From a virus (Duplodnaviria; Heunggongvirae; Uroviricota; Caudoviricetes), in the IMG/VR virus record IMGVR_UViG_2671180680_000004: a stretch of DNA of 4,579 nucleotides; one strand, given 5' to 3'. Shown one piece after another: positions 1 through 4,579 of this stretch; position 1 is the stretch's first letter, and each line of letters opens with the position of its first letter. The position numbers were made by a program, and so were the translations under genes. A model generated the notes under the pieces. It was not told where the DNA came from. It saw only the letters and a list, made by a program, of their open reading frames with translations, and made no database searches.

Positions 1-28
1 AGGGACAGCTGATAGAAACAGAAGCCAC
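1..28 (-). CDS. insA: IS1 InsA (transposition inhibitor / transposase N-terminal protein), first 9 codons only; partial, runs off the window
   Basis: Minus strand from 28 reads GTG GCT TCT GTT TCT ATC AGC TGT CCC, giving (M)ASVSISCP, the known InsA N-terminus with a GTG start. Truncated by the window edge. Confidence 0.7.
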
Positions 29-60
29 TGGAGCACCTCAAAAACACCATCATACACTAA

Positions 61-83
61 ATCAGTAAGTTGGCAGCATCACC
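61..83 (-). repeat. IS1 left terminal inverted repeat (about 23 bp)
   Basis: Minus-strand 83..61 reads GGTGATGCTGCCAACTTACTGAT, the canonical IS1 end sequence. Flanking non-IS DNA begins at 84 (gttttaacg...). Confidence 0.8.
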
Positions 84-260
84 GTTTTAACGTTACTAAT
101 AAATCGTGAAACAATCTCCTCATTTGTTAGTATTTTCGCCTGAGCACAGCAAGAGGTTAATATTGCAACCGTCATTAAAAATGGCTTTATCACAAAACAA
201 ACTCCATTGTTAGCATGTTACGCGATAATTTTGCCTCATCTTTCACCACAAAAAAAGAAC

Positions 261-2203
261 TCACCTTTTAAATGGAGAATACCCAACATCATGGGTGATT
301 TTCATAAAGGGATCGCCTGTTTTCGGCAAATCGATAACGCGCATTCCAGGCGGCGCGTTGTCAAACGTCACCTTAAGTTCGCTGCGGGTTGCCGGTGAAG
401 ATGCAAGGCTTAACAGCTGATTCCTTTCCAGTGATACATTCGGGGTGTAGCGTTTATCGGGAGATAAATACCCATCACCACGTGGCATCTGCCATCCGGT
501 CATGTCATAGACAAAATCATGGAACTGTTTGCCCCACTCGTCGAACTTATCATTCAGACCAAATCCACTGTTCAGTGCATCAGCCACAAAATTTTTAACA
601 AGCCAGGGATGTGCTTTTTCAAACTCCTGCGCCATCATGCCCAGTTCAAGCAATCCACCAATCAGACTGATCTTTCCGAGGCCCTTTAATTTCAGCCCTG
701 TTTTTCCTGCCGCCGTTGTCCATTGATTCTGGGCGACTGTTGCCGCACGAATACTTGCCACCGCCTTCACACCAATATACAGGGCAGAAACCGTTGCTAT
801 TGTTTTTACTGCCTGTTCCCATCCCCCCATTGCTCTGACAACCTGATCAACCTCCTGCCAGACTTTTTTCACAACCGGACCGACCGTTTCCCAGTTATCA
901 ATTATGAGATATGCACCACCGACGAGAAGCGCAATTAATCCCTTTGCCGGCGTCATATTCATCACGCTACCCATGATTTTTGTTATGCGTGTCAATGTGC
1001 CAATCGCCACGCCCATCGTCAGTAATGCCGCACCAGTTTTCGCGATGGTTTTTACGACCTCAGGATTTTCTCTGACAAACGTGCGCACTTCTTCCAGAAA
1101 AGGCTTCATCTCTTTTATGCCTTCATTGAGTGAAGGCAGGAAGGTTTCCCCCAGCGTGNNNNNNNNNNNNNNNNNNNNNNNNNNNNNNNNNNNNNNNNNN
1201 NNNNNNNNNNNNNNNNNNNNNNNNNNNNNNNNNNNNNNNNNNNNNNNNNNNNNNNNNNNNNNNNNNNNNNNNNNNNNNNNNNNNNNNNNNNNNNNNNNNN
1301 NNNNNNNNNNNNNNNNNNNNNNNNNNNNNNNNNNNNNNNNNNNNNNNNNNNNNNNNNNNNNNNNNNNNNNNNNNNNNNNNNNNNNNNNNNNNNNNNTACG
1401 TGCAGCATGGCCCCGCGGGCGTCTTTCTGCATATCCGCCGCCAGTTTTTTCGGGCTAATGCGCAACGAGCGGAGCACTTTTTTCTGCGATTTGGTGGCAG
1501 AATCCCTCGCTGTCAGCGACAACATAAAATTCTTTATCCCCGTCGCAGCAATTTCTGACTCCACCCCCATTCCGGCAATGGTTGCCCCCATTGCGGCAAT
1601 CTCTCCGGAGGCCACACCCGCAACACTGCCTAAAGGGCCAATACGGGTCACAACATCAGAAATCTTTTTCGCACTTGCAGGACCGGTATTACCAAGATAG
1701 TTAATCTTATCCGCAAGCCCTGCCACCTCTCCCTGTGTCAGTTTAAAGGCAGTGCGCCACTGCGCCATCATCTGACCGGATTCTTCTGCCGTGGTGTCAA
1801 AGGCCACGCCCATCTTCACGGCATCGTCAGTAAACTGCATCAGCTCGTCACGGGCGATACCAGCCTGACCACCCGCCGCCACAATTTCGGCGATACCTTC
1901 CGCCGACATGGGCAGTTCTGTTGACAGGTCGCGCACCTGCTCCGTCATTGCCTTAAACGCTTCCGGCGTATCCAGACCATCCACCACTTTCCGGACATCC
2001 GCCATTTTTGATTCAAGGGCAATGGCAGATTTGACCGGGAGCGCCAGCGCCCCCAGTACTGCGGTTCCGGCACCCGCTGCGCCCAGTAACAGGCTGGCAA
2101 ACTCCTTTTTAAAACCTTTCAGCTGGCGCTGCATTCCCTTCAGCGGTGCCGATACCTTATCCACGGCAGTGATGATCGCCTTCAGCTGAAAACTGTCAGC
2201 CAT
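261..2203 (-). CDS. Phage tail tape measure protein; interior masked (1159..1396); the two visible halves are not in the same frame at the displayed gap length, so it may be frameshifted
   Basis: N-terminal half (2203..1397) translates to MADSFQLKAIITAVDKV...AAMGATIAGMGVESEIAATGIKNFMLSL..., typical of the conserved tape measure N-terminal core. C-terminal half is open from the mask edge (1157) to the TGA at 263..261 (...TLGETFLPSLNEGIKEMKPFLEEV...KITHDVGYSPFKR) and is rich in Gly/Ala/hydrophobic segments as in tape measure C-terminal regions. Start ATG 2203..2201 is preceded by GAGGAG (2216..2211) with a 7-nt spacer. Position directly after the chaperone gene is canonical. The listed ORF end at 1115 (RWGKPSCLHSMKA*) is an artefact of reading the N-terminal frame through the mask. 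Confidence 0.85.
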
Positions 2204-2339
2204 GCTTCATCTCCTCGTTAATGCGGACGGCCTCGGCTTCCAGTTCTGTAAACTGCGAAACAGCCCCCCGTCGCAGCTCCAGTGGATTCAGTTTCCAGAA
2301 CCAGGCAACATTGTAGAGTCGTTTCCGGAGGTGCTTCCC
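2196..2339 (-). CDS. -1 frame extension of the tail assembly chaperone (GT-like / E+E'-like product) or a second small tail-assembly ORF; 5' end lies in the masked region
   Basis: The frame that is -1 relative to the 2608 ORF is open from the mask edge to TGA 2198..2196 (GKHLRKRLYNVAWFWKLNPLELRRGAVSQFTELEAEAVRINEEMKHG*). It overlaps the upstream ORF's stop and ends 8 nt inside the tape measure start, the layout expected for a frameshift extension. The ATG at 2708 given in the ORF track lies inside the tube gene and is not a credible start. Confidence 0.4.
   Translation of the reverse strand, partial: GKHLRKRLYNVAWFWKLNPLELRRGAVSQFTELEAEAVRINEEMKHG
2211..2216 (-). promoter_or_regulatory. Shine-Dalgarno (GAGGAG) for the tape measure gene
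   Basis: Minus strand reads taacGAGGAGatgaagcATG: a perfect SD 7 nt upstream of the ATG at 2203..2201. Confidence 0.65.
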
Positions 2340-2608
2340 GNNNNNNNNNNNNNNNNNNNNNNNNNNNNNNNNNNNNNNNNNNNNNNNNNNNNNNNNNNNN
2401 NNNNNNNNNNNNNNNNNNNNNNNNNNNNNNNNNNNNNNNNNNNNNNNNNNNNNNNNNNNNNNNNNNNNNNNNNNNNNNNNNNNNNNNNNNNNNNNNNNNN
2501 NNNNNNNNNNNNNNNNNNNNNNNNNNNNNNNNNNNNNNNNNNNNNNNNNNNNNNNNNNNNNNNNNNNNNNNNNNNNNNNNNNNNNNNNNNNNTAACGTTC
2601 ATTGCCAT
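2288..2608 (-). CDS. Tail assembly chaperone (lambda G-like / P2 E-like position), upstream ORF; interior masked
   Basis: ATG at 2608..2606 overlaps the tube stop (minus strand TAATGGCAATGAACG) and is preceded by GGGAGGG (2623..2617) with an 8-nt spacer. Frame is readable as MAMNV before the mask and ...GSTSGNDSTMLPGSGN* after it, ending at TGA 2290..2288. The mask is 252 nt (a multiple of 3), so the frame is consistent if the mask preserves length; stops inside the mask cannot be excluded. Position between tube and tape measure is the canonical chaperone location. Confidence 0.5.
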   Translation of the reverse strand: MAMNVXXXXXXXXXXXXXXXXXXXXXXXXXXXXXXXXXXXXXXXXXXXXXXXXXXXXXXXXXXXXXXXXXXXXXXXXXXXXXXXXXXXXXGSTSGNDSTMLPGSGN

Positions 2609-2964
2609 TACTGATACCCTCCCTCTTCGCCGTGGAATTCAAGATCTGCCGTGCCTTCTTCGGCATTATGATTAGCCTCTCCGTGCAGCCATGCCGCCGA
2701 AAGCACATACACCATGCCGTTTGCCAGCTCAGCGGTAATCGTCATCTGGTCTGAGGTGGTAATTTTGTCGACCGGAAAGTTTTTGGGCACTTTAAACGTG
2801 CCCTTAACGTAAGGTGACCGCCAGGTCTCCTTGTAATCCACATCCCCTGCCATGCCGACGATGTCATCCCGGACATTGGTGTTCATCGGCACTTCAATGC
2901 CACCTGTCAGCGATAACTGCTGACCATCCACTTTAAAAAAACAGGTTCCGGCGATCTTTGCCAT
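2608..2964 (-). CDS. Phage tail tube protein (Mu gpM-like size, 118 aa)
   Basis: Intact 118-aa ORF (MAKIAGTCFFKVDGQQLSLTGGIEVPMNTNV...EFHGEEGGYQ*). ATG 2964..2962 overlaps the sheath stop TAA 2966..2964 (TAATG) and is preceded by GAGGAG (2978..2973) with an 8-nt spacer. Small acidic protein immediately downstream of the sheath is the standard tube position. Family call rests on context and size, not a search. Confidence 0.75.
   Translation of the reverse strand: MAKIAGTCFFKVDGQQLSLTGGIEVPMNTNVRDDIVGMAGDVDYKETWRSPYVKGTFKVPKNFPVDKITTSDQMTITAELANGMVYVLSAAWLHGEANHNAEEGTADLEFHGEEGGYQ
2617..2623 (-). promoter_or_regulatory. Shine-Dalgarno (GGGAGGG) for the tail assembly chaperone gene
   Basis: Minus strand reads gaagaGGGAGGGtatcagtaATG; it sits inside the 3' end of the tube gene, consistent with translational coupling. 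Confidence 0.55.
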
Positions 2965-4499
2965 TATGCTGACTCCTCTGAATACTGAAGACGGAACTGG
3001 TTAACCACCGCAAAGACACGTAACTGATTAACATAATCCGGCGGGAACAGCGTATTCAGTCGGTTCGGGTTATCTGCATCACGCTCAACTATCAGATACT
3101 GTTTAAACAGATCGTAATTTTCCACAATACCGGCACGCTCCATCTGACGATATGTCGCCAGAAGTTCCCCTTTGATAACGGCAGGAGTGACAATCGCCTG
3201 CCCCGGACCAAAACGGGTACCATCATTTGCCAGCTTGTGACGTCCGTACTTGCTTGTGATGACCGATTTCAGTTTGCGAAGAACATATGCACTGGTATGC
3301 AGAGTTTCACTGTCCAGATAGCTGTTGTCTGCCACGCCATACGCATTCTTTTTGTAGGTGGTTACGGAACGCTGGATCTGCAACGTGCCGCCTTCCACAT
3401 AAGCCGTCGCCACGCCGTGAGATAAAAGGGTCTGCTGCTCTGTCATGATGAATCGCTTACCTTTCGGTGCCGGAAGCATCCCCACCAGCTCCCCCGTCTG
3501 TGTCGGACGGGCAGGATCATTCCGGATAAATACCGCTTCACGGGCAAGGCGACTGGCAACCAGTTCATCGACAGGCGACTGGGTTTCTTTTTCGTAACCG
3601 GCAAGCGTGATATGTTGCTGATTATGCATATCTCCGGCACCAACCAGCTCTGACAGCGTTCCCAGTTTTGCGGTATAGCCATGCCCGTATAACTGGCGCG
3701 CATAACTCCAGCGACCGCTGCTGTCATTCATTTCGGTCATCATCATATTGATGGAGNNNNNNNNNNNNNNNNNNNNNNNNNNNNNNNNNNNNNNNNNNNN
3801 NNNNNNNNNNNNNNNNNNNNNNNNNNNNNNNNNNNNNNNNNNNNNNNNNNNNNNNNNNNNNNNNNNNNNNNNNNNNNNNNNNNNNNNNNNNNNNNNNNNN
3901 NNNNNNNNNNNNNNNNNNNNNNNNNNNNNNNNNNNNNNNNNNNNNNNNNNNNNNNNNNNNNNNNNNNNNNNNNNNNNNNNNNNNNNNNNNNNNNNNNNNN
4001 NNNNNNNNNNNNNNNNNNNNNNNNNNNNNNNNNNNNNNAACGGCAGGGTGATAACCCCGTTTACCGCTTCCTTAATCGCGGTGGCAACCGCAGTGGCATC
4101 ATCGCCATTCACCACAGGCACCTGTACACGGGAGCGCCCGACATACAGACTCAGGGTGCCGCTTTCCTCTGCTTCTCCGGCAACCGTCACCCTGACCGTC
4201 GCCGCCGCCCCTCTGGCTTCCGGTACTGCAATAACATACAGTTCACCGAAAGGATCTGTCTGACGGTAGACTTCCACCATACGCGCCAGCTGGCTCCCCG
4301 CCCCACAAATCTGGCGGGCATAATCTGCCGATGGCATCAGCACCAGGCTGTTAACCTCAATGGCTGCATCGTTGCTGGCATGCCCGATCAGTAATGCAGG
4401 CGCGCTGGTCACCGCTGTATTTGCCGCAGAATTGTTCATCTCGGCGTAGAACAACGGCACCAGCGTATTCGACGGAACAGTATTAAAACTTATCGTCAT
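2964..4499 (-). CDS. Phage contractile tail sheath protein (Mu gpL-like size, 511 aa); interior masked 3757..4038
   Basis: Long ORF, ATG 4499..4497 to TAA 2966..2964. Frame is conserved on both sides of a 282-nt mask (multiple of 3). Upstream AAGG at 4512..4509 with a 9-nt spacer. Size about 500 aa, followed directly by a coupled 118-aa tube gene, chaperone and tape measure, which is the diagnostic myovirus tail gene order. Protein begins MTISFNTVPSNTLVPLFYAEMNNS... and ends ...VVNQFRLQYSEESA. Confidence 0.85.
   Translation of the reverse strand: MTISFNTVPSNTLVPLFYAEMNNSAANTAVTSAPALLIGHASNDAAIEVNSLVLMPSADYARQICGAGSQLARMVEVYRQTDPFGELYVIAVPEARGAAATVRVTVAGEAEESGTLSLYVGRSRVQVPVVNGDDATAVATAIKEAVNGVITLPXXXXXXXXXXXXXXXXXXXXXXXXXXXXXXXXXXXXXXXXXXXXXXXXXXXXXXXXXXXXXXXXXXXXXXXXXXXXXXXXXXXXXXXXXXXXXXXSINMMMTEMNDSSGRWSYARQLYGHGYTAKLGTLSELVGAGDMHNQQHITLAGYEKETQSPVDELVASRLAREAVFIRNDPARPTQTGELVGMLPAPKGKRFIMTEQQTLLSHGVATAYVEGGTLQIQRSVTTYKKNAYGVADNSYLDSETLHTSAYVLRKLKSVITSKYGRHKLANDGTRFGPGQAIVTPAVIKGELLATYRQMERAGIVENYDLFKQYLIVERDADNPNRLNTLFPPDYVNQLRVFAVVNQFRLQYSEESA
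2973..2978 (-). promoter_or_regulatory. Shine-Dalgarno (GAGGAG) for the tail tube gene, embedded in the last codons of the sheath gene
   Basis: Minus strand reads tcaGAGGAGtcagcaTAATGG: the SD is encoded within sheath codons S-E-E-S-A-stop. Confidence 0.6.
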
Positions 4500-4579
4500 G
4501 ATTTTTTAGCCTTATCCTTGAGGTGTACTGGCAATAGCGGACACTACCATTTGTTCTTTTTTTAAGCAGCCATCTGATG

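Follow-up and report, generated by a model that had tools for sequence, protein, structure and literature searches.

The window, a 4,579-nt stretch of viral DNA, begins inside an insertion sequence. Very probably, a complete and apparently functional IS1 inserted at codon 37 of an accessory gene in a phiP27-like Shigella sonnei prophage and deleted nothing. This explanation rests on two assemblies with an identical junction (L003 and L004, see below); the window itself ends inside IS1. The element transposed by the standard route into AT-rich DNA, producing a 9-bp duplication. The target was a small AT-rich gene between the tape measure gene and a gene for a Mu N-like (DNA circularisation/baseplate hub) protein. 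Of the accessory protein, the signal peptide and some 20 further residues are left, joined to six IS-encoded residues. A simple insertion predicts that, to the left of the window, 685 nt more of IS1 are followed by CGTTAAAAC, ATCTGCAGATAATGACG... and then, after about 430 nt, the N-like gene.

Based on the ORF list and Pfam, all genes in the window lie on the minus strand. The features are as follows:

1..83, minus strand: terminal 83 nt of IS1, left, insA-proximal end (83/83 identity to K-12 IS1A)
83-61, minus strand: IS1 inverted repeat IRL, part of the left IS1 end
28-26, minus strand: insA start codon GTG (IS1 position 56), reading towards position 1 and leaving the window leftwards
84..92, unstranded: one copy of the 9-bp target-site duplication (gttttaacg on the plus strand, CGTTAAAAC in gene orientation)
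62..193, minus strand: truncated accessory gene (43 aa in the ORF list; intact 160-aa gene in L001 and L002)
194..260, minus strand: AT-rich leader of the accessory gene, 67 nt (34.3% G + C, from the sequence)
261..2203, minus strand: complete tail tape measure gene (PF10145, 1.4e-38)
2288..2608, minus strand: tail assembly chaperone gene, mostly masked (L003 7564-7899; PF10109, weak)
2608..2964, minus strand: tail tube gene, 118 aa (PF10618, 1.4e-33)
2964..4499, minus strand: tail sheath gene, partly masked (PF04984, PF17482, PF17481)
4519..4579, unstranded: terminal 61 nt of IS600 (99.8% identity of the element at L003 4433-5692 with annotated IS600 copies)

Three runs of N mask parts of the window (1159-1396, 2341-2592 and 3757-4038). 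Their lengths (238, 252 and 282 N) are not true to the 245, 267 and 243 nt present in L003, so that ORF lengths and reading frames across the runs are artefactual in the window. Masking artefacts were the split of the tape measure gene over two ORFs and the reading of the sheath as 511 aa. In unmasked homologues the tape measure protein has 649 aa and the sheath protein 498 aa, all of which could be aligned to an intact relative (649/649 and 498/498 residues), as could the chaperone (109/109). The tape measure stop codon lies at 261-263 and the interval 84-260 comprises 177 nt. With a G + C content of 34.5%, versus 51.9% for the tape measure gene, this interval is indeed the AT-rich DNA that the earlier note had described.

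Identity of the IS1 copy and its breakpoint

The reverse complement of window 1-83 was compared with the first 83 nt of IS1A from E. coli K-12 MG1655 (the annotated 768-bp mobile element, NC_000913.3 19796-20563) and showed 0 mismatches. A match of 83/83 is far beyond chance, and the terminus at position 83, with insA reading leftwards from the GTG at 28-26, is as had been recognised from the letters alone. A megablast with window 1-1158 as query covered 5,426 complete E. coli genomes and gave matches at about 72,700 places in 4,977 of them, the signal of multicopy IS1. None of the records in these 5,426 genomes spanned the junction within 1-1158, and 11 records covered 84(-86)..1157/1158, beginning at the junction or at most 2 bases from it, which together mark 83/84 as a real breakpoint. 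An exact search of a species-representative genome collection with the 40-nt junction yielded no match.

The window ORF 62-193 (43 aa, minus strand) spans the boundary of IS1 and the accessory gene and therefore served as a junction-specific query in an exact look-up. It was present on two NCBI contigs, AGRD01000060.1 (L003) and AKNC01000076.1 (L004), both from Shigella sonnei, and the 43-aa product is already annotated in S. sonnei 3226-85. The Escherichia/Shigella-type host proposed earlier can be specified accordingly as S. sonnei. Compared with L003, the window showed 100% identity in 1-1158, 1397-2340 and 4039-4579 and a single mismatch in 2593-3756. One base thus sets it apart from L003, and three positions set it apart from L004; since it differs from both, its source may be a third strain.

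In L003 the full IS1 copy occupies 10111-10878 (768 bp), which places the other IS1 end at the expected distance of about 768 bp. InsA is open (91 aa), InsB has 167 aa and matches PF03400 (DDE_Tnp_IS1), and the A6C frameshift site TTAAAAAACTC is seen at about 10423-10433. The terminal inverted repeats are imperfect, with 18 of the first 23 positions complementary in L003; the window holds the left end alone. Identity, a length of ~768 bp, terminal repeats, insA/insB and a 9-bp duplication all place the copy in the IS1 family. It resembles IS1A in its 768 bp, terminal inverted repeats, insA/insB and A6C site, and in its 9-bp duplication in AT-rich DNA; three substitutions (765/768 identical) set it apart from IS1A, and otherwise nothing notable was seen. 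AT-rich DNA is the preferred target of IS1, and its insertions have a strong polar effect on genes downstream. The copy has the same orientation as the tail operon.

Target duplication, flanking colinearity and alternative readings

In L003, CGTTAAAAC is present on both sides of IS1 (10102-10110 and 10879-10887), and in L004 it is found at the outer flanks too. The duplication that had been predicted from gttttaacg at 84..92 is therefore present at the other IS1 end. The right-hand IS1 junction reads ...cattacc, followed directly by CGTTAAAACatctgc. An empty site is available in E. coli FDAARGOS_944 (L001), a strain that looks Shigella- or EIEC-like and is 99.9% identical to window 84-1158; it reads ...AGTAACGTTAAAACATCTGCAG... 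and contains a single copy of CGTTAAAAC. Colinearity was judged against the prophage of E. coli STEC309 (L002), which is intact. L003 5693-10110 corresponds to L002 16411-12001, and L003 10879-15285 to L002 12009-7599, the L003 blocks overlapping on STEC309 by the 9-bp duplication alone. The duplication and the colinear flanks together indicate a simple IS1 insertion with no adjacent deletion.

Past IS1, L003 continues with the remaining 378 nt of the accessory gene and then with N-like, P, gp45 and gp46. The residues aligned were 463/463 for N, 345/351 for P, 177/177 for gp45 and 137/137 for gp46 (the gp46 frame is open). In addition, some partial proteins of S. sonnei drafts break off exactly at the left junction (P0018, ...SNVKT) and others start within the right IS1 end (P0023, ESLPVKTSADND...; ESLPVKTSAD...), showing that both junctions recur in S. 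sonnei.

The earlier note had offered an IS1 insertion or an IS1-mediated adjacent deletion as the event, and had the distal tail genes removed or interrupted. That the tail operon stops at the tape measure gene because an adjacent deletion took away the tail and baseplate genes beyond it is extremely improbable. Such a deletion agrees with the window, where IS1 alone is seen past the 177 nt, and with the established ability of IS1 to promote adjacent deletions; moreover, the head genes of this prophage were lost beside other IS elements. However, both L003 and L004 keep the second CGTTAAAAC and unbroken colinearity past IS1. Had a deletion started at this IS1, the duplication would be gone, so its intact state speaks against one. 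Of the two events offered, the insertion is upheld and the deletion is not, given the duplication and the colinearity with STEC309, and the claim of missing distal genes has to be abandoned, as N-like, P, gp45 and gp46 follow directly past IS1. What L003 and L004 contain is the very arrangement that the earlier note had named as contrary to its reading, a simple insertion with a 9-bp duplication and the downstream genes present.

Another reading supposes that in the source genome homologous recombination has inverted the 4.4-kb segment between two inverted IS1 copies (N, P, gp45 and gp46, flanked by what remains of the accessory gene and by the 5' part of J), or that the site contains IS1 in tandem, in either case with no gene lost. 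The window junction would look the same after an inversion, and two identical inverted IS1 copies do lie 4.4 kb apart; PMC8072062 describes frequent rearrangement of Shigella genomes at IS copies. In both L003 and L004, however, the segment has its native orientation. A tandem is suggested by L004, in which the target site shows IS1, 8 bp and IS1, but this is one short-read-era draft only and may be an assembly artefact. Taken together, inversion or tandem is very improbable. In the L004 draft (S. sonnei 3226-85), positions 4881-6424 hold two head-to-tail IS1 copies with the 8-bp spacer TACATCGG, and the outer duplication is intact. The tandem could be real, for example by recombination with an excised IS1 circle, or it could have arisen in assembly. 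In complete E. coli genomes, the spacer TACATCGG was matched only at two melB::IS1 junctions, which share 7 nt (ACATCGG) with it and are flanked by GACATCGG. melB::IS1 was dropped as the origin of the spacer, as a rough estimate puts a 7-nt match among ~73,000 IS1 places at chance level.

The accessory gene interrupted by IS1

The 177 nt, in which the earlier note had seen no gene, do contain part of one. On the minus strand, 84-193 is the first 110 nt of an accessory gene, encoding a signal peptide within residues 1-37, and window 83-62 supplies the IS1-encoded residues VMLPTY and a stop after codon 37. The intact 160-aa hypothetical protein (WP_000594909.1), whose start codon corresponds to window 193, is annotated in relatives directly 3' of the tape measure gene; the intact gene lies at L001 11628-12110 and is also present in L002. 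A GGAG ribosome-binding site is located at 205-202, eight nt upstream of the GTG start. With the accessory gene, the interval from tape measure to N comprises 596 bp (L001 11582-12177) and is closed by a terminator-like hairpin and a T run. A simple consensus scan detected no sigma-70-like promoter upstream of the gene.

The gene is present in only 11 of the 5,426 complete E. coli genomes. It is absent from L005, L006 and phiP27, in which 15 nt separate the tape measure and N-like genes. Morons are accessory genes of phages located between conserved late genes, for example lambda bor/lom and the HK97 morons. Judged by its context, the gene is moron-like, because close relatives either have or lack it between one and the same pair of conserved genes. 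As in morons, the slot is fixed, the G + C content of the interval deviates (36.7% versus 52-55% for its neighbours) and the predicted product is exported. As for transcription signals of its own, a terminator-like hairpin follows the gene, and the consensus scan showed no promoter.

The only family match of the accessory protein was phrog_5586; sequence searches of Pfam, NCBIfam, PADLOC and PDB gave no match. The family is small, with members in Shigella, E. coli, Yersinia enterocolitica and phage vB_EcoM-720R4, and the homologue of this phage is 50% identical and located at the equivalent slot. In P27-like and Mu-tailed phages, the accessory gene appears to keep to one place, the slot between tape measure and N. 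All full-length family members have a predicted signal peptide at the N-terminus, and two cysteines are conserved across the family. The Shigella and Yersinia forms contain a lipobox (LTSC and LISC, respectively) and are putative lipoproteins. An AlphaFold model, calculated from an 8-sequence alignment, had a mean pLDDT of 40.8 and was unusable. A mainly beta fold is predicted for the protein. If exported, it is unlikely to form part of the virion. It is possible, if rather doubtful, that the protein acts at the envelope as a lysogenic-conversion or superinfection-exclusion factor and that S. sonnei has lost it via IS1.

Given the known polarity of IS1, fewer transcripts would be expected to reach the downstream baseplate genes. 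Besides loss of the accessory protein, the insertion probably has no phenotype, since the element, which already was or later became a headless remnant and has a split J, could not make particles anyway.

Prophage decay and relation to known phages

The prophage is defective, as had been suspected, but not through the IS1 at the tape measure gene, which had been proposed as the cause. The lesions are the loss of the head genes on the IS600/IS4 side, an IS1 in J and a frameshift. Homology to intact relatives stops at window 4518, 19 nt upstream of the sheath ATG, and in L003 IS600 replaces the head and neck genes, which comprise ~4.8 kb in intact relatives. It is thus the IS600 junction, not the IS1 junction, that is the site of deletion. 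Upstream of IS600, L003 contains only a 120-aa prohead protease fragment, a portal scrap, IS4 and the host genes bamD and rluD. Genes for terminase, capsid, connector, head closure and tail terminator were not found in L003 or L004. Both contigs hold only short portal and protease fragments, and the gene set of an intact (inducible) prophage is incomplete there.

The second IS1 (L003 15285-16052) is identical to the first, inverted, and located 4.4 kb past it, where it splits the baseplate gene J/gp47; the tail gene after J is frameshifted. It has a 9-bp duplication of its own, GGGGGCGCA. The two IS1 copies bracket N, P, gp45 and gp46. A composite transposon carrying these baseplate genes was considered and rejected, as each IS1 has a different 9-bp duplication.

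In the prophage of FDAARGOS_944, the closest uninterrupted relative, two ISEc60 insertions are present. One end of this prophage (L001 1094-2735) adjoins a frameshifted ipaHe effector gene.

In Shigella reference chromosomes, IS insertions number 229-348, and 46-73% of them are IS1 (PMC7373316); IS1 is the commonest IS in Shigella chromosomes, and IS4 and IS600 have expanded too (PMC7373316). An IS1 insertion in a decayed Shigella prophage is ordinary and already known biology. A Shigella genome is expected to contain IS1 insertions and decayed prophages, so the event matters little in itself, and both the junction and the annotation of the truncated ORF are already contained in public S. sonnei assemblies. 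An IS end beside a phage gene is by itself no sign of a deletion; the 9-bp duplication and the empty site decide.

Gene order and Pfam families bore out the Mu-like tail module recognised earlier. Sheath, tube, chaperone, tape measure, N, P, gp45, gp46, gp47 and gp48 were found in the order and with the families of P27-like/Mu-type phages, using Pfam in the window and L003 and the annotation of the intact relatives and phiP27. The order from sheath to J/gp47 and gp48 is the same as in the Stx2e-converting phage phiP27 and the P27-like prophages of E. coli, and the nucleotide identity to phiP27 L47 over the 3' end of the tape measure gene is 98.1%. Whereas in phiP27 L47 (tape measure) and L48 (N-like) are 15 nt apart, the lineage of the window has the AT-rich 596-bp insert with the accessory gene at this place. 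Also unlike phiP27, the prophage of S. sonnei is reduced to a remnant that lacks head, regulatory and lysis genes on this side. The tail gene order further agrees with that of Mu (gp39 L to gp48, with tape measure gp42 followed by N, gp43), and the Pfam families DNA_circ_N, Phage_Mu_Gp45, GP46, Baseplate_J and Phage_Mu_Gp48 are common to both. The likeness to Mu is confined to the tail, however, as the head and packaging genes of the intact relatives are annotated as HK97 and P27 family.
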